From an uncultured Butyricicoccus sp. (GTDB lineage: Bacteria > Bacillota > Clostridia > Oscillospirales > Butyricicoccaceae): a DNA stretch of 64,000 bases. Location: positions 6,102 through 70,101 of the forward strand of contig CALWUF010000060.1 of the NCBI GenBank assembly GCA_944384655.1. The letters are read 5' to 3'. The translations under genes and the position numbers were made by a program. Shown in pieces: positions 1,387 through 22,292 of the stretch. How positions within the stretch are numbered: position 1 is the first letter of the stretch; each line of letters begins with the position of its first letter. Under the pieces are notes generated by a model. That model was not told where the DNA came from, ran no database searches, and saw only the letters and a list, made by a program, of their open reading frames with translations.

Positions 1387-4173
1387 TTATCGGCTGATTA
1401 CAGATGCACAGCGTGCACACAGGCACGGATGCTCTGCATTTTCACCGACCGTCGGATCATAGATCCAGCAGCGGGCACATTTCTCGCCTTCCATATGGCT
1501 GACAGCAATTTTGATGCCGCCAAGCGCTTCATATTCATCGCCTTCGCCTTCGCCGCTCTGGATGGAAACCGAAGAGACAATACACAATTTTGCCAGATCC
1601 TGACCACAGCTCTCGAGGAATTCCCTGCCTGCGTCGGACGCGGTAATGACAACGTTTGCCTCCAACGGTTTACCGATCAGCTTTGCGCCGCGCGCCTGTT
1701 CCAGTGCCTTGTTCACATCGTCACGAACCGCAATAATCTTTTCCCATCGAATCATAGCCGCTTCATCAAACGCCAGCGACGCATCATAAGAGGGCATATC
1801 ATTGAACAGAATGTTATCCAAATCGTCGCCTTCCTGATGTGGCATTGCATGCCAGATTTCATCCGCAGTGAAGCAGAGAATAGGCGAAATCATGCGAACC
1901 AGCGCATCCAGAATGCGGTAAATCGCAGTCTGTGCAGATAAGCGGCTCACACCGTCATCACAATACAGGCGGTCCTTGATGACATCCAGATAGAAGTTAG
2001 ACATATCGACAACACAGAAATTGTGAATTGCATGTGTAACGGTGTGGAATTCATAGCTGTCATATGCAGCACGGACACGACCAACCAAATCATTGCACTT
2101 CATCAGCGCCCATTTATCCAACTCAAGCATCTGGTCATAAGGAACCATCTGATCGACGGTAAAACCATCCAAATTGCCTATGATATAACGCGCTGTGTTG
2201 CGGATCTTGAGGTAATTCTGCGAGAGCTGCTTGAACATCTTCTTAGAGATTTTCATATCCACGCGGTAATCCGCCGAAGAAACCCACAGGCGCAGGATAT
2301 CCGCGCCGGATTCCCTGGTGATTTCCTGGGGACTCATGCCGTTGCCCTTGGACTTCGACATCTTCTGACGCTCTTCATCGACAATCATACCGTGCGTAAT
2401 GACAGTCTTATACGGAGCCGTTCCCTTTGTGGCAATGGCAGTCAGCATAGAAGACTGGAACCAGCCGCGATACTGGTCATTGCCTTCCAGATACACATCT
2501 GCCGGATAGGTCAAATCATCGCGCTCATCCATCACAGCTGCATGGCTGGAACCGGAATCAAACCATACGTCCATCGTATCGGTTTCCTTGGTAAACGAAT
2601 TACAGCCACACTCACACTTGATATCATCGGTCAGGATGTCATTGGCATCCATATCAAACCATGCGCTTGTACCATGCTCGCGGAACAGGTCGGCAACCAA
2701 CTGGATGGTCTTTTCGTTGACCATCGGTTTCCCACACTTCTTACAGAAGAAGATTGGAATCGGCACACCCCAGATACGCTGACGGGAAATGCACCAATCA
2801 GAGCGCTCCTGAATCATAGAAGTCATACGCTCTTCACCCCATGCCGGAATCCACTGGATGTCATGGCATGCCTTCACTGCATCATCCTTCATCGCGTCAA
2901 CCGAACAGAACCACTGCTCAGTCGCACGGAAGATAATCGGATTTTTACATCTCCAGCAGTGCGGATAGGAATGCTCCATGGTTTCAACAGCCAGCAAAGC
3001 ACCCTGCGCCTTCAGATCTTCCAAAATGACCGGATTGGTCTTTTCATAGTACATACCGGCATATTTGCCTGCATCTTCCGTTGCATACCCCTTGCTGTCA
3101 ACCGGAACAATCATCGGGATTTCCGGATATTTCTGACAAACAATAAAGTCGTCTGCACCGAAGCCCGGCGCGGTGTGAACACAGCCGGTACCGGCATCCA
3201 ATGTGACGTGCTCACCGACGATCACCAGAGAATCACGATCCATCAGCGGATGCTGCGTGGTAATATATTCCAGTTCAGAACCTTGAATTGTACCGACGAT
3301 CTCATACGATTCGATACCGGAAGCCTTTGCAACAGAGGAAATCAAGTCGGTTGCCAGAACATAGATTTCACCGTTTGGCACCTTCACAAATGAATATTCA
3401 AAGTACGGATTGACAGAAATGGCAAGGTTACCCGGCAAGGTCCAGGTTGTCGTCGTCCAGATGACGAAATAAACGTTTTCTGTCGTGCCGAGGATTGCGC
3501 TGATCTTTCCCTTGTCATCTTTGACAGCAAACTTGACATAAATGGATTCACAGGTTGAATCTTTGTATTCAATCTCAGCCTCCGCCAGTGCAGTCTCATC
3601 GTGCGGACACCAATAAACCGGCTTCAGACCCTTGTAAATATAACCCTTCTTCGCCATTTCGCCAAAAACTTCGATCTGCTTTGCGACAAAGTCATTGGTC
3701 AATGTCAGATACGGATTCTCCCAGTCTCCCACAACGCCCAAGCGCTTAAACTGTTCGCGCTGTGTATTGACATGTTCGAGTGCAAATTCCTTACATTTCT
3801 CGCAGAACTCCTTGTTGCTGACCTTGTGTCGGTCCAGACCAAACGCAGCAATTGCCTGACGTTCAATCGGCAAACCATGGGTGTCCCACCCCGGAACATA
3901 GGGTGCTTTGTAACCGGTCATATTTTTATAGCGAATGATGAAGTCTTTGAGGATCTTATTGAGCGCATGACCCAAATGCAAATTTCCATTTGCATAGGGA
4001 GGACCATCGTGCAGAATAAACAGGGGTTTCCCCTCATTTTTCTTCATCAATGTATCATAAATATGATCCTCTTCCCACTTGGCCAAAAATTCCGGCTCGC
4101 GTTTGGGAAGCCCCGCGCGCATCGGAAAATCAGTTTTGGGAAGATGGATTGTGTTGTTGTAGTCCTGCGGCAT
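1387..4173 (-). CDS. ileS: Isoleucine--tRNA ligase (type 1)
   Basis: 928 aa. HDGPPYANG..HLGH, GWDTHGLPIE, WCISRQR, KMSKS, C-terminal CxxC..CxxC zinc finger. Confidence 0.98.
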   Translation of the reverse strand: MPQDYNNTIHLPKTDFPMRAGLPKREPEFLAKWEEDHIYDTLMKKNEGKPLFILHDGPPYANGNLHLGHALNKILKDFIIRYKNMTGYKAPYVPGWDTHGLPIERQAIAAFGLDRHKVSNKEFCEKCKEFALEHVNTQREQFKRLGVVGDWENPYLTLTNDFVAKQIEVFGEMAKKGYIYKGLKPVYWCPHDETALAEAEIEYKDSTCESIYVKFAVKDDKGKISAILGTTENVYFVIWTTTTWTLPGNLAISVNPYFEYSFVKVPNGEIYVLATDLISSVAKASGIESYEIVGTIQGSELEYITTQHPLMDRDSLVIVGEHVTLDAGTGCVHTAPGFGADDFIVCQKYPEIPMIVPVDSKGYATEDAGKYAGMYYEKTNPVILEDLKAQGALLAVETMEHSYPHCWRCKNPIIFRATEQWFCSVDAMKDDAVKACHDIQWIPAWGEERMTSMIQERSDWCISRQRIWGVPIPIFFCKKCGKPMVNEKTIQLVADLFREHGTSAWFDMDANDILTDDIKCECGCNSFTKETDTMDVWFDSGSSHAAVMDERDDLTYPADVYLEGNDQYRGWFQSSMLTAIATKGTAPYKTVITHGMIVDEERQKMSKSKGNGMSPQEITRESGADILRLWVSSADYRVDMKISKKMFKQLSQNYLKIRNTARYIIGNLDGFTVDQMVPYDQMLELDKWALMKCNDLVGRVRAAYDSYEFHTVTHAIHNFCVVDMSNFYLDVIKDRLYCDDGVSRLSAQTAIYRILDALVRMISPILCFTADEIWHAMPHQEGDDLDNILFNDMPSYDASLAFDEAAMIRWEKIIAVRDDVNKALEQARGAKLIGKPLEANVVITASDAGREFLESCGQDLAKLCIVSSVSIQSGEGEGDEYEALGGIKIAVSHMEGEKCARCWIYDPTVGENAEHPCLCARCASVISR

Positions 4174-4270
4174 TGAACCGTACTCCTTTCTAACTCTGGC
4201 GTTAAATCGCCAACCGCCAACGGGCGGAATCTCTATATCGCAAACAGCTTCCGCTGTTTATCGTCAAAAG

Positions 4271-4993
4271 TTATGTATTTGCGTCTGCCTGAGAGCCGCT
4301 CACTTCCACGGTGAACTGCGTCTCTTCCATGCCGGTTTTTCGGGAGGCATGGGATGCGTTGGCAAATATTTTTAATATATCATCCGGAATCTCCGTTCCG
4401 GAGGTATGCTGTTCACGCGGCACCACCGCCGGCTCTGCGGGACCTTCCACATGACTTTCTAATGTTTCGCTCTGCACAGTCTGTCCGGAAATCGAAGTAA
4501 ATTCCATCCCAACCTGCTCAGGAATGGCCGCAATACGCTCACTCTGCTCACGAAACGCCCGCGTCATCTTATCGATAAACGACGCACACTCACGCTGCGC
4601 CAGACGCAAACGTGCCTGCTCCTGCGAGGCCTGAATCTGATACTGGCGGATAATTGCCTCGCATTGGCTGGATGCATCCGCTTTCATCTGTTCCACCTGT
4701 GCCCGTGCCCGGGCAAGCAGTTCTTCCGATTCATCTGTTGCCTTTTTTGTCGTCTGTTCCGCGACATTCTGCGCTGTCATCAATGCCTGACGAATCCCGC
4801 TTTCCACCCTGCGGTATTCCTCAATTTTGTCCACAAGAACCTTGAGTTTTGCCCGCAGTTCTGCATTTTCCTTTTCCAGCGCCTCCATATCATCCGCAAC
4901 TTGATCCAACAGTGAATCGACACTCTTGATATCATATCCGCCAAAAACAGCCTTTTCAATGGCATACTCCCGCAATTCCCTGGAACTTAACAT
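4271..4993 (-). CDS. divIVA: DivIVA-domain cell division protein
   Basis: N-terminus MLSSRELREYAIEKAVFGGYDIKSVDSLLDQV followed by a coiled coil. SD GGAGG before ATG 4993. Usual position upstream of ileS. Confidence 0.85.
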   Translation of the reverse strand: MLSSRELREYAIEKAVFGGYDIKSVDSLLDQVADDMEALEKENAELRAKLKVLVDKIEEYRRVESGIRQALMTAQNVAEQTTKKATDESEELLARARAQVEQMKADASSQCEAIIRQYQIQASQEQARLRLAQRECASFIDKMTRAFREQSERIAAIPEQVGMEFTSISGQTVQSETLESHVEGPAEPAVVPREQHTSGTEIPDDILKIFANASHASRKTGMEETQFTVEVSGSQADANT

Positions 4994-5095
4994 GTTGACC
5001 TCCTGAAATCCGGCAGTGCTCGACTGGCGGAGAATAACTGGAAAATGGCCGGGCAGAAAGAAACCCGGCCGGATAAAATCTGTGCGAATCAGCAA

Positions 5096-5359
5096 TCAAT
5101 ACAATGCGTACAACAGACTCTGCGCCATTACCAGAATGAAAAACGCCAAAAGCGTTGAAAAATCGAGCGGCATGGTGCGAAGTGAACGAAATCGGCTGAG
5201 AAAGCTGCGGCAAGGCGCAACCATTGGTTCCGTAACGGTATACAGCAACTGACCGATGCGCGAATTCTGAACCTGTGGGAACCATGAGGCAATCGCACGG
5301 AACACAAGCAGCCATTGCAGCAAGCTAAGCAGCCTAATTGTGAGATAAACTATAATCAT
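5096..5359 (-). CDS. yggT: YggT/YlmG family membrane protein
   Basis: Hydrophobic 87 aa with LLYTVTEPMVAPCR and MPLDFS motifs, directly after sepF. Confidence 0.88.
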   Translation of the reverse strand: MIIVYLTIRLLSLLQWLLVFRAIASWFPQVQNSRIGQLLYTVTEPMVAPCRSFLSRFRSLRTMPLDFSTLLAFFILVMAQSLLYALY

Positions 5360-5395
5360 ATCAGCATATCCTATGCTCCGACCAGAGAGCAACAG

Positions 5396-5884
5396 TCAGA
5401 ATTTCATGCCGCTGTTTTGCAGCTCACTGATGAGATCATCACCGACAATCTCGACATCCAGCGGCGTAATCAGGTATGTATTGCTCGCAACGCGCTTGAT
5501 CTTCCCCTCAATGGCATAGGTGACACCGCTCAGGAAGTCGAGCATACGTTTAGACACTTCCTTATCCGTAGATTCAAGGTTAAGTACGACGGTCATCTTA
5601 TTTTTCAAATGATCGGCGATGTCGGCAACATTGTTAAACTGATCGGCTTTGACCAGAACAACAGCGAGCCGAGTTGTCGCACTGATGTTGACAACTCTAT
5701 TATTTCTGCGCGATTGAACCTGTGTATGCGCTGCCTCAACGGGCGCGGATGCAGCAGACTCCGGCCGGCTGTAGTAGGACGGTTCTTCCGGCTCTGCGGA
5801 CGCCATCGTTTCATCGTCCAGATCAAAGTCGTCATCATCCACTTCGCCGCTCACCCAGCGTTTGAAGTCATTCACTAATCCCAT
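5396..5884 (-). CDS. sepF: Cell division protein SepF
   Basis: MGLVNDFKRW, acidic linker, C-terminal domain VVLNLE..KRMLDFLSGVTYAIEGKIKRV. SD GGAGG. Confidence 0.93.
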   Translation of the reverse strand: MGLVNDFKRWVSGEVDDDDFDLDDETMASAEPEEPSYYSRPESAASAPVEAAHTQVQSRRNNRVVNISATTRLAVVLVKADQFNNVADIADHLKNKMTVVLNLESTDKEVSKRMLDFLSGVTYAIEGKIKRVASNTYLITPLDVEIVGDDLISELQNSGMKF

Positions 5885-5924
5885 TTTCTGCTTCCTCCTG
5901 AATGGAACAATTCTTCCAAATATA

Positions 5925-6635
5925 TCAATAATGGCGGGCGCCAAAAATAGCTGTACCCAGCCGGACGATGGTTGCCCCACAGGAAATTGCCTCTGTATAA
6001 TCGGCACTCATTCCCATCGACAAGCAGTCCATGGTGATATTATCGTATTTTTTCGCCGATATGTCAATAAAGAGTTTGGACATTCTGTCGAAATAAAGAG
6101 TTTTTTCTTCATTTGGTTGCGTCCTTGGTGGAATTGCCATCAAACCTCGAACACGGACATGGTTTAATTTGGCAATTTGCTCGGTGATAGAAAACAGCTC
6201 ATCGGGATCAATGCCCAACTTGCTCTCCTCTCTGCCAATGTTCACTTCCAGCAGGATATCCTGACAAATTCCTGCCTTTGCCGCCTCCTTGTCAATGACG
6301 CGCGCCAGCTTGAGTGAACTCACGGACTCAATCAGGGAGACCTTACCGATGAGATATTTGACTTTATTGGTCTGTAGTGTGCCGATAAAGTGCAGCGGAC
6401 AACCGTCATATGCGTGCTGTTCATATTTTCCCAGCAACTCCTGTACACGATTTTCACCGCATACATCTACGCCCGCCGCAATCGCCGCACGCACACGCTC
6501 TGCGTCATTCATTTTTGTCGCTGCAACCAGTGTAATATCCTCCGGACGACGTCCAGCTTCCACTGCGGCTCTGGCAATGCGCTCCCGCGCCTGTGCAACG
6601 TTTTCTTCAATCTGCCTGCGTTCTTCCTCTGTCAT
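5925..6635 (-). CDS. yggS: YggS/PLPBP pyridoxal-phosphate homeostasis protein
   Basis: LVAATK, GENRVQE, HFIGTLQTNKVK, LSMGMSADY, VRLGTAIFG. Confidence 0.95.
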   Translation of the reverse strand: MTEEERRQIEENVAQARERIARAAVEAGRRPEDITLVAATKMNDAERVRAAIAAGVDVCGENRVQELLGKYEQHAYDGCPLHFIGTLQTNKVKYLIGKVSLIESVSSLKLARVIDKEAAKAGICQDILLEVNIGREESKLGIDPDELFSITEQIAKLNHVRVRGLMAIPPRTQPNEEKTLYFDRMSKLFIDISAKKYDNITMDCLSMGMSADYTEAISCGATIVRLGTAIFGARHY

Positions 6636-7915
6636 TTCATTACCTTCTTGTCATCCAAGTCTTTTGCTTCCACAATGATGTCGTCTCCTGCAACCAGGGA
6701 ATCATTCCCCGTTACATTCTGCTCGACAATATAAAAATCCTCGCCTTCGAACAACGGATTGATGTTCTTATACCGCGCCACATCGTTGGACAAAACATAC
6801 ACGCCCATCTCATCATCCTGCATACGGACAGCAGATTTCGGCACTTTGAGACCCGAATACGACGCCACGATCACCGTTGCGCTCTGCTTACGCATGGATA
6901 TGAGATCCTCATTGATCTCCTGCGACTGGAAAATTACCAATGTGTCTTCGCTGTCCGCGTCATCTCGAATCGATGTAACAGTCGCTTGCACATCCTGATT
7001 GACCTGTGCAAAGCGCAGTTTTACGGTGCTGCCCTGTGACAGATGCTCTGCATTTGAATCCGACACCTGCGCTGCAAAATACCACGTATAGCCGGAAACA
7101 ATCTTACCTTTGTTGGAATCTGTGGATTTCTTCTCATTGACCAGATTTCCCAGAGAAGACAGCGTGAGATCTTCGATCACATCCGGTGTGAGAACCTCCT
7201 CATAGCCGTCAACTGACTCGCAGAAATACCCCGCATACGGCGAAGTGATTTCCGATGTATTGCCATCCAGCCGTTGCTCCAGAGATTCCGCCTGTGCTTC
7301 CAGGCTTGCAATTTCCGCATCAATGTCATCGGTCCCGCCCTCCAGCGAACCGCTTTTCAATGCCAGCTGGCGCAGTTCCGAGACGAGCGACGCAATCTGT
7401 CCCAGCGACGCACCTTCTGCCTCGCTGCTGATCGCATTCATCTGCCCTATGATTTTCTGATTGAGCTGACTGGAATTGGTGCTCGTGGAAGACATCGTGC
7501 GCAATGTTTCCAACTGATCGATGTTATCGCGTATGTTTTTGAGCTCCCGGCTGACGGTCAGCGCGTCCTCGTCTTTATATTCTGTGATAAGCGAAGCGCC
7601 CTTTGCAACTTTATCGCCATCAGAATAATTATATTGTACCGTATCGCCCTCTACAATATCAATGACATTTTCCTCGCGGATAAAATACCCCGTCGTTGAA
7701 AATGAATCGTCCGTCACGATCTGAACGGCTGATGTCGTCCGGATTGGATTGTAATGGTTGACGATAAAGCTGACTGCACCGTAAATCAAAATCAATGAAA
7801 AAACAATGACTGGTACGCGGAGCGTTTTATTCATTTTTATCTTTCCGATCCGCCATACGCGGCTCGTATTTTTTTTGGAATTTCTCCGTGAAAACGAAGA
7901 CCATTTGAATGCCAT
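6632..7915 (-). CDS. Single-TM membrane-fusion (HlyD-like) protein with central coiled coil
   Basis: N-terminal hydrophobic helix, GDKVAKG lipoyl-like motif, helical hairpin and ITSPYAGYF. Overlaps the yggS start by 4 nt. Confidence 0.65.
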   Translation of the reverse strand: MAFKWSSFSRRNSKKNTSRVWRIGKIKMNKTLRVPVIVFSLILIYGAVSFIVNHYNPIRTTSAVQIVTDDSFSTTGYFIREENVIDIVEGDTVQYNYSDGDKVAKGASLITEYKDEDALTVSRELKNIRDNIDQLETLRTMSSTSTNSSQLNQKIIGQMNAISSEAEGASLGQIASLVSELRQLALKSGSLEGGTDDIDAEIASLEAQAESLEQRLDGNTSEITSPYAGYFCESVDGYEEVLTPDVIEDLTLSSLGNLVNEKKSTDSNKGKIVSGYTWYFAAQVSDSNAEHLSQGSTVKLRFAQVNQDVQATVTSIRDDADSEDTLVIFQSQEINEDLISMRKQSATVIVASYSGLKVPKSAVRMQDDEMGVYVLSNDVARYKNINPLFEGEDFYIVEQNVTGNDSLVAGDDIIVEAKDLDDKKVMK

Positions 7916-17835: not shown

Positions 17836-18732
17836 TTACTGTGTGTCATCCGACTGTTCAGGTTCAGAATCTTTCTGTTCGCCCTCTGTGCCGAACAGCT
17901 TCTGATGGCGCTCAAAATCTGTGCGCCGTTCGCAGTATGCATGTTCAAGACGCAGCGTTTCCTTGAGCAAAACCTCCAATTCCGAAGAATAGGCGTCCAA
18001 TTCCTCCGCTGCCCCCAACTTTGCAAATGAGATGATTTTCAAATATTTGCCGACTGCCAGATGCAGCTTGACCTGTGCGCGGTTCAACTCGCCATATTCC
18101 ATCTCATTGATAATCTGCTGAAGCTCCGCGCGAATGCCCAATGTCATGAGCTGAAATACCACACGGTCAGACGGCACAATCAGACGTGTCTCATATCGCG
18201 TCAATAGCTGCTCAAGCAGTTTGTTGTTCGCTTCATGCATCTTGTGCAAGTCTTCCAGTTTATACGAATGCATTTTCAAACCCACGGATTCTTCGGTCAG
18301 ACGGATTTCTTCCATCTCCTCCGGCGTAATGTCCAAATCATCCAGAAATCCTGTGGTACTGTATTTTGTGATCGCAGCGCGCATCGCCTTATACAGATTT
18401 GCCATGCAGTAAACCTGCCGTTCACAGTCTTCAAAATACAGCTTTGCTTTGTTGAGCTTGGCCTCGATCCGCTCCAGATCTTCCGCAGCTTCCGTCTCAC
18501 GGTTGGCGTATTCCGCGATAATGGCTTCGCGCTCTTCGGTCACCTGTTTATGAATGGCGATGATAATGTCATCTTTTCTGGCAATCGTATCTTCACGTGC
18601 ACGCAGTTCTTCCTGCGCTTCCGTCAGTTTTGTCTCCAACTCCTGTAAACGCGCTTGCGCATCCGCAATCTTTGCATTGGTGGCATTCAGCGATTCGCGT
18701 GCGCCCAGCAGTTCTTTCATGGTCTCAAACAT
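17836..18732 (-). CDS. Coiled-coil protein with a DUF4041-like region and no C-terminal nuclease domain
   Basis: Long N-terminal heptad region. Segment VFQLMTLGIRAELQQIINEMEYGEL..KYLKI resembles clostridial DUF4041 proteins (recalled similarity, not searched). Confidence 0.5.
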   Translation of the reverse strand: MFETMKELLGARESLNATNAKIADAQARLQELETKLTEAQEELRAREDTIARKDDIIIAIHKQVTEEREAIIAEYANRETEAAEDLERIEAKLNKAKLYFEDCERQVYCMANLYKAMRAAITKYSTTGFLDDLDITPEEMEEIRLTEESVGLKMHSYKLEDLHKMHEANNKLLEQLLTRYETRLIVPSDRVVFQLMTLGIRAELQQIINEMEYGELNRAQVKLHLAVGKYLKIISFAKLGAAEELDAYSSELEVLLKETLRLEHAYCERRTDFERHQKLFGTEGEQKDSEPEQSDDTQ

Positions 18733-18846
18733 TGGTGTATCTCCTATCCAGACTCAACTGTTATATCAAAATCAAAATCTGATTAAAATCAAGGTTATTG
18801 TACTACTTAAACGCCATTTTCGCAATAGGTTCCTCAAATTCCAGCG

Positions 18847-18875
18847 AAAAAGCCGGAGAAATTTCTCCGGCTTTT
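18847..18875. terminator. Intrinsic terminator downstream of the split gene
   Basis: AAAAAGCCGGAGAAATTTCTCCGGCTTTT: perfect stem flanked by A and T runs. Confidence 0.8.
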
Positions 18876-18911
18876 GATATCGGCTTTGACAATTCTGCGC
18901 GCTTGTGTACA

Positions 18912-19328
18912 TCAGCGGCAGTGTGACGGACGCTCACAGCAGCAGTTGTCGCAATCAGATTGCCGACCGCCTGAATCCGAACCATCGCGTCTGGGTGGGA
19001 AAAATTCTTCCACCGGGAAATCAAACCGCTCAAACATATCGCATGGATCTTGCGCACGTCCGCAGTTTGCATCTTCGCCGGTACAACTGCAATCTTTCGC
19101 AGGCATGCAGATATCGTATGCTGGCATGAGCAACTGAATATCGCGTTCCAGTCGGATGATCGAAAACTGTCCGAGCGTAACATACAACTGTTTGACGTCG
19201 GTATCCAGAATGATGTCATCCCCAAACAGGCGTCCAATGTTTTCCGGCACTTTGTTCAGCTCACAATAACAACCACAACGGCAACCTGGTTCCACCATCT
19301 TTGCCGAAAGAATCAGCGGGTCAAGTGT
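18912..19328 (-). CDS. 3' half (138 aa) of the interrupted Cys-rich putative spore protein
   Basis: TLDPLILSAKMVE..LYVTLGQFSIIRLERDIQLLMPAYDICMPAKDC..FPVEEFFPP. In frame with the 5' half once 19332-21251 is removed. Confidence 0.88.
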   Translation of the reverse strand, partial: TLDPLILSAKMVEPGCRCGCYCELNKVPENIGRLFGDDIILDTDVKQLYVTLGQFSIIRLERDIQLLMPAYDICMPAKDCSCTGEDANCGRAQDPCDMFERFDFPVEEFFPPRRDGSDSGGRQSDCDNCCCERPSHCR

Positions 19329-20550
19329 TTCTGTTTGTGCCGCAGCAATCGGAACAATCGTTCTCCTTTCGCCAAAATATGCGCACGGTACGGTCTTGTT
19401 CCACCTCAATGCGGGACAACAAACGAGTGAGTTGCGCATGCGTTAGCGTACGAATCCAAGACGGTTGCACTGGCACGAGATCATGCAGGCAATGCTCCAA
19501 CAAATCGAACGCGATCGTTTCCGGGATGCTCACGGCATTTGTACAGGTGTTTTTATTGCGGTCATGATGCCAACACATCCAGTACCGCTGTCTCCCCCGC
19601 GTGCGCGGGGAAAATATACCCCCACATGTGCCGCAAACAATGAGACCGCTGAGCGGCAGTGTCGCGCGGCGGCTTTGATTCCATTGTCCACCAGATGCTG
19701 CAATCTTTTTCCGCCGTGCCATCTCCTGCTGGACAGCATCAAACCATGTGCGCGGGACAATGGCCCAATCCGGACGCTCATGTGAAAACCATTCGCTCTG
19801 CGGCAGCGGTTTGACTGTGCCATCCAGATAATCCACAACCGTACTTCGATGATTGACCAATGTGCCGCAATACACCGGATTGCACAGGCAACGGCGCACA
19901 CCGCGCGATTCCCACTGTTTTCCCAACTTGGTCGGTGTGCCCATCCGATTGAGTTCCTGTGCAATGCGTGCCGCACCCCAGCCGTCCAAATATCGAGCAA
20001 ACATGAATCGAACCGCTTCCGCTTCCGCAGAACAGATGCTCAAGGTAAACAAATCCAGACGATCATAGCCGTACAGCATGGGCGGCACACGTCCCTTTTT
20101 CGCGTTGAGTTCTTTGCCGAATTTTACACGTTTGGAGAGATTTGCGCTCTCTTCCTGTGCGAGAGACGCATAAACCGTCAGAATAAATTCCGAATCGCCC
20201 AAGCTCTCCTGTCCGGATGACAAAAAACGCACGGCAATCCCCTGTTTTTTAAGCGCACGGATTGCCTGTAGACAATCGACAGTATTGCGTGCAAACCGGG
20301 AAATGTCCTTGACCGCCACAAGATCAAAAACCCCACACGCAGCATCGGACAACATACGCATAAATTGTTCCCTTCTGCGAAGCTGCCTGCCGGACACACC
20401 TTCATCGGCATAGACTGCGGCAAGCTCCATCCCTTCCCGCGCAGCATACTGCTCAAAAAATTCCTTCTGATGCATTAAACTGTCCAATTGTCCCTCTTTT
20501 TTTGTCGAAACACGGCAATAGGCTGCGAGACGTATTGTTTTATTTGTCAT
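19321..20550 (-). CDS. Large serine recombinase (SpoIVCA/CisA-like), 409 aa
   Basis: AYCRVST catalytic Ser, YADEGVSG, KDISRFARN, recombinase domain, zinc ribbon LSGLIVCGTCG..YWMC..TC. SD GGAGG before ATG 20550. The stop codon lies in host DNA beyond the left junction. Confidence 0.95.
   Translation of the reverse strand: MTNKTIRLAAYCRVSTKKEGQLDSLMHQKEFFEQYAAREGMELAAVYADEGVSGRQLRRREQFMRMLSDAACGVFDLVAVKDISRFARNTVDCLQAIRALKKQGIAVRFLSSGQESLGDSEFILTVYASLAQEESANLSKRVKFGKELNAKKGRVPPMLYGYDRLDLFTLSICSAEAEAVRFMFARYLDGWGAARIAQELNRMGTPTKLGKQWESRGVRRCLCNPVYCGTLVNHRSTVVDYLDGTVKPLPQSEWFSHERPDWAIVPRTWFDAVQQEMARRKKIAASGGQWNQSRRATLPLSGLIVCGTCGGIFSPRTRGRQRYWMCWHHDRNKNTCTNAVSIPETIAFDLLEHCLHDLVPVQPSWIRTLTHAQLTRLLSRIEVEQDRTVRIFWRKENDCSDCCGTNRNT
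19336..19355. repeat. Left terminal inverted repeat (attP half-site)
   Basis: TGTGCCGCAGCAATCGGAAC, a 19/20 match to the reverse complement of 21226-21245. Confidence 0.95.
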
Positions 20551-20653
20551 CTCGACAGTCCTCCAGTTCCTGTAAAACTGCCAAAATTGATTGCCTGCAC
20601 TGCATATGATCGGACTGTACACGATAATCTGCTGAACTCAAACGTTTGCCCAT
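20540..20653 (-). CDS. Small 37-aa ORF overlapping the recombinase start (candidate directionality factor or regulator)
   Basis: MGKRLSSADYRVQSDHMQCRQSILAVLQELEDCRDDK. Strong SD GGAGGAGG 7 nt upstream. Stop lies within the first recombinase codons. Below the ORF-track cut-off. Confidence 0.6.
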   Translation of the reverse strand: MGKRLSSADYRVQSDHMQCRQSILAVLQELEDCRDDK

Positions 20654-20743
20654 AGTCATCCCTCCTCCCTGATGTTATATGCAAATTATCATTGCGTTTT
20701 GCTCCAAAACCGCCTACAATAACAACGAAAGGAAGGAATCGCC

Positions 20744-21220
20744 ATGAGAAACACCACACTGTGTTATATCGAACAAAATGGTAAGTATCTGATGCTTCAC
20801 CGCACAAAAAAAGAAAATGACCAGAGCCATGACAAATGGTTGGGGATCGGCGGCAAATTTGAGGACAAGGAAAGCCCGGAAGAATGCATCCTGCGCGAGA
20901 CGCGCGAGGAAACCGGTCTGACCCTGACAAGCTACCGCTACCGCGGCATTGTCACCTTCGTCTCGGATATCTGGGAAACGGAATATATGCATTTGTTTAC
21001 TGCAGATGGGTTTACAGGTACCCTGACAGACTGCGATGAAGGGGAGTGCCAGTGGATCCCCCGTGAAACACTGCTTTCACTGCCCATGTGGGAAGGCGAT
21101 CGTATTTTCCTAAATCTGTTGTTCGACCCGAAACAACCGTTCTTTTCGCTCAAGCTGGAGTATCAAAAGGATACCCTGATCTATGCTGCAAAAGATGGCA
21201 TTGCACTCCCGTTGAACTGA
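20744..21220 (+). CDS. Nudix hydrolase, MutT/8-oxo-dGTP diphosphatase-like (element cargo)
   Basis: Nudix box GGKFEDKESPEECILRETREETGL. SD AGGAAGGA. Stop is 5 nt before the right inverted repeat. Confidence 0.9.
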   Translation: MRNTTLCYIEQNGKYLMLHRTKKENDQSHDKWLGIGGKFEDKESPEECILRETREETGLTLTSYRYRGIVTFVSDIWETEYMHLFTADGFTGTLTDCDEGECQWIPRETLLSLPMWEGDRIFLNLLFDPKQPFFSLKLEYQKDTLIYAAKDGIALPLN

Positions 21221-21225
21221 ATCCC

Positions 21226-21245
21226 GTTCCGATTGCTGAGGCACA
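21226..21245. repeat. Right terminal inverted repeat (attP half-site)
   Basis: GTTCCGATTGCTGAGGCACA. Confidence 0.95.
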
Positions 21246-21248
21246 TCG

Positions 21249-21701
21249 TTCAACAACTGCCTCCGGCTTGTTCGCACGTTCAATCGTCTGCGCATTGGGC
21301 GAGCCCCCCTGCGATGAGAAAATACGTGCAGAGCCTTCGCTGCCATACAGAATTGCGCGTTTGTCATAATAGGCAAGACCACACAACTCCTGTGCACAAC
21401 CACAGCCTGTGCTGACCTCTGTGAAAATCTTGTAAAAATAGCGCACATCTATGCTGAAAAATCCCCGGTTGAAATCCACCGGCTGCACATCGATATCCAC
21501 ACACAACAGCTCTGCACGGCGCGGCTTAATGCTCGCTGAACGTTCCAGCAGTTCTTGTGAACTGCGCGTCAAATACACACGCAGGTCTCGAATGCATTCC
21601 TTTGAACGGCAGGCGTCAAAGATTTTTTTCGTGTGGGTGCACACGGCTTCCCGAATCTGAGTGTCACTGCACACTGGACCGGGTGTTACTCGTTCACTCA
21701 T
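21249..21701 (-). CDS. 5' half (151 aa) of the interrupted Cys-rich putative spore protein
   Basis: MSERVTPGP..EAVCTHTKKIFDACRSKECIRDLRVY..FNRGFFSIDVRYFY..LYGSEGSARIFSS..PEAVVE. SD GGAGG before ATG 21701. Confidence 0.88.
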
Positions 21702-21732
21702 AACTTCTCCCTCCATGTCGGTAATTCTGGAC

Positions 21733-21759
21733 TATACTATGCCGCACATGGGAAAAGGT
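21733..21759 (-). promoter_or_regulatory. SigK-like (mother-cell) promoter of the split gene
   Basis: Minus strand reads AC-N16-CATAGTATA, matching the B. subtilis sigK consensus AC-N16/17-CATAnnnTA. Confidence 0.55.
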
Positions 21760-21797
21760 GATTTCACAATGGAACCGTTATCAAGGAGGCTGATTTT

Positions 21798-22292
21798 ATC
21801 ACTGCACAAAACTATCAGACCTGGACACAGCCGCTGCGGCGCAGACCACGCCTGCTGCGCGCCATGCTGCTGCTCAACCGCATATTACCGCTGTTGCTCT
21901 ATGCCCTGTATCCGATTCTGCTTTTGTCTCTGCTTTTTCAGCAGGATGACCGGTTTTTGCGCGTACTTCTCACCCCGGGCATATCCTTTGTCTTGCTTTC
22001 CATATTCCGCGACCGCTTGAATGCACCGCGTCCCTATGAAGCGCTGGACATCGATCCGCTGATTCATAAAAATACCAAAGGACATTCATTTCCCAGCCGC
22101 CATGTATTTTCCATCTCAGTCATTGCCTGTTCGTTTTGGTACATCCATCCGCCTGTAGGAATGGTCCTGATGTTCTTCGCTGTCCTTACGGCTGTGATCC
22201 GTGTGCTTGGCGGGGTACATTTTCCGCGCGATGTGATCGCAGGTCTCGCAATCGGCGTCCTTTCCGGCGTCATCGGTTTTGTGTTGCTGTAA
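21798..22292 (+). CDS. PAP2-family membrane phosphatase (apparent ATC start codon)
   Basis: RPRPYE-like motif (APRPYE), SFPSRH, RVLGGVHFPRDV. Perfect SD AAGGAGG 8 nt before ATC 21798. First in-frame ATG is at 21864. Confidence 0.85.
   Translation: MTAQNYQTWTQPLRRRPRLLRAMLLLNRILPLLLYALYPILLLSLLFQQDDRFLRVLLTPGISFVLLSIFRDRLNAPRPYEALDIDPLIHKNTKGHSFPSRHVFSISVIACSFWYIHPPVGMVLMFFAVLTAVIRVLGGVHFPRDVIAGLAIGVLSGVIGFVLL

Follow-up and report, generated by a model that had tools for sequence, protein, structure and literature searches.

A 1.92-kb serine-recombinase cassette within a conserved cysteine-rich gene of an uncultured Butyricicoccus: a probable minimal skin-type element

What is a serine-recombinase gene doing inside codon 151 of another, conserved gene, and is the divided gene still used? 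This question is raised by positions 18912-21701 of a 64,000-nucleotide (nt) stretch of DNA from an uncultured Butyricicoccus sp. (assembly GCA_944384655.1, contig CALWUF010000060.1, positions 6,102 to 70,101), the whole of which is called the window below. Here, a cassette of 1,920 bp separates the two parts of a cysteine-rich gene, and an initial annotation made from the letters alone had proposed a very small developmental excision element. With a probability of roughly 0.8, the cassette is a minimal, domesticated skin-type gene-intervening element, which interrupts a conserved gene for a Cys-rich protein of 289 amino acids (aa) with a sigma-K-type (late mother-cell) promoter and would be excised by its own recombinase in the terminal cell.

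The target gene is present as two open reading frames (ORFs) on the minus strand. The 5' ORF starts with ATG at 21701, preceded by the Shine-Dalgarno sequence GGAGGGAG at 21714-21707, and its last host codons GCA GTT GTT GAA (AVVE, GAA at 21251-21249) are followed by 32 unrelated codons. The 3' ORF carries GAA ACA CTT GAC CCG (E-TLDP) with GAA at 19331-19329. Removal of 19332-21251 joined the two fragments into a single ORF of 289 aa (151+138 aa), reproducing what had been described at first. The boundaries are ambiguous by the 3-nt GAA repeat, 19330-21249 being equivalent to 19332-21251. The joined ORF was matched by 3,506 database proteins, and its alignment with intact proteins of 270-300 aa encoded in Butyricicoccus, Agathobaculum, Intestinimonas, and further Oscillospirales-type genomes showed neither a gap nor extra residues at AVVE|TLDP. 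This is among the most conserved stretches of the family, with P146, A148, V149, V150, and E151 invariant in the family alignment (A1). The nearest intact protein was merely 76-78% identical to the joined ORF, and all matches at 92-96% identity were 5' halves that break after AVVE and continue into differing junk. The split and its exact join are far beyond chance.

The joined form was found in RNA. Logan contigs of public runs were mapped to window positions 18800-21800, so that all counts of runs given here refer to contigs and not to raw reads. In all four chicken-gut metatranscriptomes of one study (X14, X19, X25, and X26), contigs joined position 19328 to 21249, skipping exactly 1,920 nt with three letters common at the joint. 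The contig of X26 covered 980 nt (18812-19328 and 21249-21711) with 0 mismatches at a depth of 23.8, the depth in the element interior being 0, and an RNA contig of the same joined kind in X19 covered 988 nt. A second species gave the homologous result: at the Butyricicoccus porcorum BB10 locus (L036), pig-gut RNA contigs of X57, X58, and X60, which come from three studies, joined 4094 to 6010, skipping 1,915 nt with two letters common (GA). In total, joined RNA occurred in 7 runs from 4 studies and in two species, and the empty-site form that the initial annotation had expected thus exists. At L021, which carries a short element, a contig of about 89% identity from RNA run X70 covered the 5' half and ended at the junction, and no joined contig was placed.

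Runs read as DNA held the occupied form only. Among the 14 runs taken as DNA for the window species, ten are labelled 'DNA?' and four (X6-X9) are of unrecorded kind; none contained a joined contig, including two at 92-164x in which contigs of depth 2-4 were retained. The joint of the mini-element was likewise found in none of the four runs read as DNA for the B. porcorum-like species, which reached up to 77x.

The cassette itself contains little. None of its three reading frames is a phage or transposase gene, and the ORF and domain scan confirmed the composition first described, namely a recombinase, a 37-aa ORF, and a Nudix gene. The Nudix box GKFEDKESPEECILRETREETGL, read from the translation, fits GX5EX7REUXEEXGU, and the protein matches the PF00293 fold, while its matches to MutT/NudG-like NCBIfam models were weak and did not reach the equivalog cut-off. 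Across 12 related elements, the Nudix protein showed 79-94% aa identity. TTGCGT-N17-TACAAT is the putative promoter of this gene; both blocks are kept in the alignment of all 13 elements and fall below the threshold of the consensus scan. The N-terminal half of the 37-aa ORF is conserved (MGK.L.A.DYRVQSDH.QC), and the ORF is translationally coupled to the recombinase in the window, L007, L008, and L036. It occurs in these 4 long elements, and the entire segment is missing from 9 short elements, whose recombinase has no zinc ribbon. Speculatively, it might serve as an accessory factor or a leader peptide; it is also the only candidate for a directionality factor in the element, and only the long elements have it.

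Upstream of the recombinase, the block TTTGCATATA was kept in all 13 elements of the alignment. It holds the box CATATAAC, which resembles the -10 boxes of mother-cell promoters, CATATAAT and CATATTAT (PMC3789822). In this block AC is separated from CATA by 14 nt, and on the opposite strand the same block forms the -35 of the putative Nudix promoter.

The ends of the element have the architecture of serine-integrase att sites, in agreement with the serine-recombinase element first proposed. Joined as in a circle and read in gene sense, they form a 50-bp dyad attP, GTTCCGATTGCTGCGGCACA-AACA-GA-ACGA-TGTGCCTCAGCAATCGGAAC, the arms of which are complementary at 19 of 20 positions. The dyad symmetry of attB (...GTTGTT-GA-AACACT...) is weak, with 9-12 of 26 positions. 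At the third position of codon 151, attL has A, G, or T in the 13 related elements, giving GAT (Asp) in L028, L029, and L042. At the same position attR has A or G throughout, and excision would therefore restore Glu. The variable third base, together with the two-letter overlap at the L036 RNA joint, supports a crossover at the GA of the GAA codon and not at the whole GAA. A resolvase-type catalytic domain, PF07508, and PF13408 accompany the roughly 50-bp dyad attP and its 2-bp crossover, as in serine integrases.

The recombinase matched PF00239 (E = 1.5e-31), PF07508 (E = 6e-20), and PF13408 (E = 2e-13, residues 299-344). Its relatives fall into three length classes: proteins of 480-510 aa with 46-55% identity and a zinc ribbon, proteins of 406-409 aa with 70-100% identity, which have the zinc ribbon and no coiled coil, and proteins of 283-305 aa with 62-78% identity, which have neither. 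R13, S15, R85, and R88 are invariant in all three classes, short forms included (alignment A3). In the same alignment, the coiled coil of the window enzyme and its close relatives is replaced by a gap of about 90 residues where the relatives of 480-510 aa have ...RLxxRKxRYxxMYANxxI.... The short-class enzymes end soon after the recombinase domain, yet they keep the final residues that overlap the att site; by Pfam, the 296-aa recombinase of L021 has PF07508 and no zinc ribbon. Elements with a short recombinase measure 1.47-1.50 kb and have also lost the 37-aa ORF.

The att sites follow the protein, which fits the accepted picture drawn from the Listeria integrase-DNA structure: the inner half-site is recognised by the recombinase domain and the outer part by the zinc ribbon. 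Of the four long elements, three have symmetry over positions 5-24, counted from the centre, and in L007 it is weaker, whereas only about positions 5-13 remain in the short ones (a GGCACA/TGTGCC block, with inner arms of about 9 bp). The outer symmetry is thus lost where the zinc ribbon is lost, which ties the element ends to protein binding. In all elements whose ORFs were read, as in the window, the recombinase ends in ...CGTNRNT; its ORF directly precedes the host 3' segment, crossing attR and stopping 11 nt inside that segment. Once the element is a circle, translation would continue into the left arm and add about 22 residues (19321-19340, 21226-21251), and the C-terminus of the enzyme would then depend on the state of the element.

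The missing coiled coil bears on the direction of the reaction. The coiled coil of canonical large serine integrases blocks attL x attR and favours intermolecular attP x attB. A Listeria integrase from which it was deleted recombined attL with attR intramolecularly even when no directionality factor was present, and was inefficient in the intermolecular attP x attB reaction (PMC5499577). By analogy with this engineered mutant, the window recombinase would excise without a directionality factor and re-integrate poorly, and the behaviour of a fixed, vertically inherited 'DNA intron' would follow from these two properties.

The proposed course of events is as follows. The recombinase of the cassette would bind both element ends, which together make up the 50-bp dyad attP, and would join attL with attR at GA, so that a 1.92-kb circle is set free and the target regains its GAA codon and full reading frame. 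The rejoined target gene would then be transcribed from the sigma-K-type promoter. Forespore and vegetative cells, as the germ line, would retain the cassette, and only a terminal cell would lose it, at a time set by expression of the recombinase. The Nudix gene may be useful cargo that also penalises loss from the germ line, and the interests of element and host appear fully aligned. Excision at the level of DNA, its restriction to the mother cell, a spore role of the target, and sporulation of the host are what we infer for this locus.

A scan of the target gene with one genome per species gave 47 loci. The gene was intact over the whole query in 24 of them, and 13 carried a recombinase element at the same codon, including Candidatus Butyricicoccus stercorigallinarum (L007) and the cultured B. 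porcorum BB10 (L036). The Nudix gene was present in all 12 elements with a left end; the contig of L041 is cut before it. Where the contigs reach far enough, the interrupted loci have the same neighbours, PAP2 on the upstream side and genes for a coiled-coil protein and a radical-SAM protein on the downstream side; three exceptions lack PAP2, since a second element intervenes. Pairwise identities of the host halves correlated with those of the recombinase and Nudix proteins (r = 0.92-0.96). Judged from these sequences, the element co-diverges with the host gene across at least 13 species-level genomes and is inherited vertically. In the 3.17-kb element of L040, a complete pyruvate kinase gene (PF00224 and PF02887, L040:1975-3447) lies between the Nudix gene and the short recombinase, which suggests that the mini-element can acquire housekeeping-type cargo.

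Selection has acted on all parts of the locus. In the target gene, the ratio of nonsynonymous to synonymous divergence (dN/dS) was 0.02-0.09 (5' half) and 0.05-0.2 (3' half). Within the element, it was 0.10-0.16 for the recombinases, the short forms among them, and 0.04-0.06 for the Nudix gene, the most constrained part of the element. Synonymous divergence (dS) among the interrupted lineages ranged from 0.6 to more than 2. Since constraint was kept over so long a divergence, the split gene and the recombinase must still be used. A pseudogene reading of the split gene was rejected by the dN/dS values and the joined RNA.

The promoter of the target gene is of a late-sporulation type. The sigma-K consensus of C. 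difficile consists of AC at -35 and CATATAAT at -10 (PMC3789822). The motif AC-N15-17-[C/A/G]ATA-N3-T[A/G] precedes the start codon by 21-90 nt in 30 of 32 homologous loci, the spacers of which are otherwise unalignable, and the two remaining loci have a CATAGAATG box further upstream. In 500 mononucleotide shuffles the motif occurred in a mean of 0.83 and a maximum of 5 loci, although the loci are related and so not fully independent. This conservation is in line with the sporulation-type target that had been suggested at first. In distant intact homologues (L004, L005, L010-L020, L030), a palindrome TTGAAG-N3-9-CTTCAA lies about 15-45 nt upstream of the start, between the sigma-K-type -10 and the ribosome-binding site. 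It is missing from the clade of the window and could be an RNA hairpin or the binding site of a regulator.

The promoter and the repeated integrase hits mark the target as a spore-protein candidate, and it is likely an important late spore-envelope protein. In Agathobaculum, which belongs to the same family Butyricicoccaceae, the homologue lies about 6 kb from sipL and spoIVA. The target family comprises about 1,500 clusters at 50% identity, and in the cluster look-up of homologues all members were named 'hypothetical'. One homologue carries the precomputed Pfam PF27077, which was outside the Pfam set scanned. The 189-aa 'members' in the 90%-identity cluster of the Agathobaculum homologue P0054 proved to be an unrelated neighbouring gene, an apparent clustering artefact, and were discarded.

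The target gene has been hit at further sites. In L019, a 3.4-kb element with an unrelated serine recombinase lies near codon 21-36. The gene begins at about codon 30 in L026, L027, L032, and L033 and at codon 78 in L037-L039, with a recombinase gene directly upstream wherever the upstream region was matched. Target-gene relatives were carried by 49 IMG/VR prophage contigs, mostly as fragments breaking near codons 31-35, 71-75, 89-97, and about 185; most 3' fragments are preceded by a serine recombinase at a distance of 0.7-1.5 kb, and both parts occur together on one contig of 42.5 kb. In Intestinibacillus massiliensis Marseille-P3216T (L047, NZ_LT707059.1, 4485-6426), a recombinase with 48% identity to that of the window lies directly upstream of the 3' part from codon ~150. 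Within 6 kb there is no 5' half; in this other genus, the site or its vicinity thus appears to carry a related element of larger size.

In B. porcorum BB10, a second interruption of the target gene lies at codon 23/24 (CTH|TKK; L036:1-3714, NZ_NHOC01000002.1). The neighbour of codon 24 is a prophage end with a holin (PF05105, 2831..3364, minus strand) and an unannotated, lysin-like ORF of 305 aa. The pig-gut RNA contigs extend upstream of codon 24 into the missing N-terminal residues (...AQIREAVCTH), and both elements of this locus therefore appear to be removed in RNA. In the DNA contigs of X46 and X48, the codon 23/24 site was found in an occupied (8-12x) and an empty (13-17x) form; the B. 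porcorum-like contigs are thus polymorphic for the prophage and not for the mini-element.

A wider reading is offered tentatively. The series from about 500 over 409 to 283-305 aa may represent a natural reduction of a large serine integrase to an excision-only enzyme, with the att sites shrinking in step. In that case, a sigma-K-dependent spore gene would contain the cassette as an inherited 'DNA intron' and would be a hot spot, not recognised before, for at least four independent integrase elements.

Several results weigh against the interpretation as a developmental element. The metagenome search for junctions that had been suggested succeeded for the joined form, in RNA contigs of two species; in DNA, neither attB nor the attP circle junction was found in the 18 runs, whose assembled contigs drop rare variants. 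The RNA and DNA runs moreover derive from different samples. A mother-cell-like -10 is present upstream of the recombinase, but a canonical sigma-E or sigma-K -35 was not assignable. The target family had no Pfam or NCBIfam match, even with 37 alignment members scanned at E <= 1, and a PDB profile search with the target gave no match. When the PDB was searched by Foldseek with an AlphaFold2 model of an intact homologue (predicted local distance difference test, pLDDT, of 75; very long beta strands), nothing matched at E <= 0.001. On the side of the host, no literature documenting sporulation of Butyricicoccus-like hosts was found, the NCBIfam scan of 20 additional large ORFs of the window showed no sporulation genes, and a search with a SpoIVA fragment returned unnamed fragments only, with no link to the host.

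Among the alternatives, the one that survives best holds that excision of DNA is real but unrelated to sporulation, the cassette being a stress-induced, stationary-phase, or stochastic switch like phage regulatory switches. The mother-cell specificity of excision was not observed, the recombinase has no clear sigma-E or sigma-K -35, sporulation of the host is without a record in our searches, and the yin element of C. botulinum was excised at all time points (PMC10747680), all of which would suit such a switch. A non-replicating 1.9-kb circle would, however, be lost from dividing cells. Poor re-integration is expected without a coiled coil (PMC5499577), yet the element is fixed over saturated synonymous divergence, and empty alleles were not found. 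The conserved sigma-K-type promoter and the Agathobaculum homologue near sipL and spoIVA also argue against a switch of this kind, which we consider unlikely.

It is very unlikely that the joined RNA stems from co-existing strains without the element and that the cassette is a static, never-excising insertion. Contigs cannot assign a molecule to a strain, the different origin of the RNA and DNA runs leaves room for such strains, and the codon 23/24 site of B. porcorum-like DNA demonstrates that occupied and empty forms do coexist in this gene. The joined RNA is, however, 100% identical to the flanks of the window over 980 nt, and 5.8 billion proteins include no intact allele that exceeds 78% identity, all close matches being split. 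The 18 DNA runs held the occupied form only at up to 164x, despite the retention of low-depth contigs, and the strong purifying selection on both halves in every interrupted lineage is not predicted by a dead insertion. Intron-like splicing of the 1.9 kb from RNA, with DNA that is never rearranged, would equally leave DNA occupied and RNA joined, but has next to no probability given that no Rfam family matched at E <= 0.1 in 18700-21900 (the sole match being Chlorobi-1, E = 0.19), that the ends form a dyad-symmetric serine-integrase attP with a 2-nt crossover, that loss of the zinc ribbon goes with loss of outer att symmetry, that the recombinase is under selection with an intact catalytic site, and that the Nudix gene lies antisense inside the element; a self-splicing intron was judged unlikely by the Rfam result and the att anatomy.

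As a gene-intervening element probably excised by its own recombinase, the cassette invites comparison with known systems. Reported targets of programmed reconstitution include sigK, spsM, spoVFB, spoVR, gerE, yabG, cotJC, and spoIIID (PMC4191935, PMC10747680, 10.1101/2022.02.25.481979). The skin elements of sigK measure 2.6-48 kb and contain 2-67 genes; their recombinase gene occupies the edge, in most cases adjoining the 3' fragment on its upstream side, and skin-like elements also occur in cotJC and spoIIID (Galperin et al., 10.1101/2022.02.25.481979). The window element resembles skin in its serine recombinase, which lies at the edge, in the same orientation and directly upstream of the 3' gene fragment, and in the precise removal that restores a gene with a mother-cell-type promoter (here seen as RNA) while the element appears to stay in the inherited chromosome. 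It shares no gene content with skin except the recombinase, its target is an uncharacterised Cys-rich 289-aa protein and not sigK, and the window element has the same Nudix gene as 12 of the 13 related elements (all those with a left end). The recombinase has 409 aa without a coiled coil (283-305 aa in relatives), compared with 480-510 aa in its nearest canonical relatives. The claim of a very small element holds insofar as 1.92 kb (1.47 kb in relatives) lies below the minimum of 2.6 kb found described, but skin elements of 2.6 kb with two genes were already known.

The gin element in gerE of B. cereus ATCC10987 is likewise a non-phage element with a serine recombinase (GirC) and a short core in an imperfect inverted repeat, and it also rebuilds a small sporulation gene (PMC5595907). 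It comprises 31 genes with three recombinases and needs GirX besides GirC, whereas the window element has 2-3 genes and one recombinase. SPbeta in spsM, vfbin in spoVFB, vrin in spoVR (PMC4191935), and yin in yabG (PMC10747680) are mobile elements in mother-cell genes that are excised to rebuild them, and the target family of the window is also split by real prophages (the BB10 holin locus and IMG/VR contigs of about 40 kb). In contrast to the window element without phage genes, they are prophages or prophage-like, several still lytic, and the smallest size found cited is 14.6 kb for the C. difficile skin element (10.1101/2022.02.25.481979).

Two further systems resemble the recombinase. The cyanobacterial fdxN element, one of the heterocyst-specific excision elements, is excised during development by the large serine recombinase XisF, and its gene is needed only in a terminally differentiated cell; XisF needs XisH and XisI. 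The phylum, the developmental programme, and the targets are different, and the window recombinase matched the NCBIfam model recomb_XisF below threshold (E = 5.6e-29, 101 bits against a cut-off of 375). The coiled-coil-deleted Listeria innocua integrase has the same set of catalytic, recombinase, and zinc-ribbon domains, but it is a laboratory deletion with low, promiscuous activity (Gupta et al. 2017, PMC5499577), while the window enzyme is natural and under purifying selection. Known intervening elements use the directionality factors SprB, CD1234, and GirX; such a factor may be unnecessary here, where the coiled coil is missing. No prior description of the element or paper on the target gene was found in literature searches, consistent with the initial annotation, which had known of no report of the target. 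The element would work like the known intervening elements, but it differs from them in five respects, namely its target, its size, a recombinase that is truncated, Nudix cargo that is conserved, and vertical inheritance that reaches far back.

The coordinates of the locus are collected in Table 1. The genes around it are ordinary chromosomal ones (ileS, miaA, mutL, mutS, miaB, and a radical-SAM pair), and the GC content is unchanged across the insert. The RNA contig of X26 stops at 18812, just beyond the terminator-like hairpin; the pattern scan by consensus flagged neither this terminator nor the Nudix promoter in the window. Elsewhere in the window, a 427-aa ORF at 6632-7915 (minus strand) matched TIGR02828 ('putative membrane fusion protein') below threshold, with 78 bits where 154 are required.

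Table 1. Features of the split locus in window coordinates, with strand and the basis of each assignment
Feature	Position	Strand	Basis
Candidate sigma-K-type promoter: -35 AC (21759-21758), 16-nt spacer, -10 CATAGTATA (21741-21733)	21733..21759	-	read from sequence
Target gene, 5' segment, codons 1-151 (MSERV...KPEAVVE)	21249..21701	-	matches residues 1-151 of intact homologues
attL crossover GA, first two bases of codon 151	21250..21251	-	variable third base; 2-letter L036 joint
Left end (P' arm): spacer ACGA, then 20-bp arm TGTGCCTCAGCAATCGGAAC	21226..21249	-	19/20 complementary to right-end arm
Intervening element, 1,920 bp	19332..21251	-	deletion restores ORF; RNA contigs omit exactly 1,920 nt
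Nudix hydrolase gene, 158 aa, Nudix box intact	20744..21220	+	PF00293, E = 4.8e-18
Putative sigma-A-like promoter of Nudix gene, 8/12 consensus positions	20692..20720	+	alignment of 13 elements
CATATAAC box, mother-cell -10-like, with GGAGG at 20668-20661	20674..20681	-	upstream of small ORF and recombinase
37-aa ORF (MGKRLSSADYRVQSDHMQC...), stop overlapping recombinase ATG	20540..20653	-	ORF list
Serine recombinase, 409 aa, Resolvase + Recombinase + Zn_ribbon_recom	19321..20550	-	Pfam
Right end (P arm): 20-bp arm GTTCCGATTGCTGCGGCACA, then spacer AACA	19332..19355	-	19/20 complementary to left-end arm
attR crossover GA	19330..19331	-	att comparison; L036 joint
Target gene, 3' segment, Cys-rich, from codon 151 (E-TLDP...) to stop at 18914-18912	18912..19331	-	ORF and homologue alignment
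Terminator-like hairpin GCCGGAGA-AATT-TCTCCGGC, GC-rich, then TTTTT	18847..18875	-	read from sequence
attB around the joint: ...GCGGTGGTTGA|AACACTTGAC...			

For annotation practice, the locus means that in many assembled genomes the target gene is split into two 'hypothetical' ORFs with junk tails. The recombinases without coiled coil or zinc ribbon, together with their trimmed att sites, constitute a natural test of models of integrase directionality and site recognition. If the forms of about 290 aa still excise precisely without a directionality factor, they would be the smallest known serine recombinases that carry out a programmed, gene-restoring deletion, and such enzymes could serve as compact deletion tools. 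For the Butyricicoccaceae and their relatives among the gut Clostridia, which are abundant but little studied, the element would extend the known targets of gene reconstitution to a family not described by the curated models scanned. It would also provide a near-minimal case, a recombinase and one cargo gene, fixed and vertically inherited across species.

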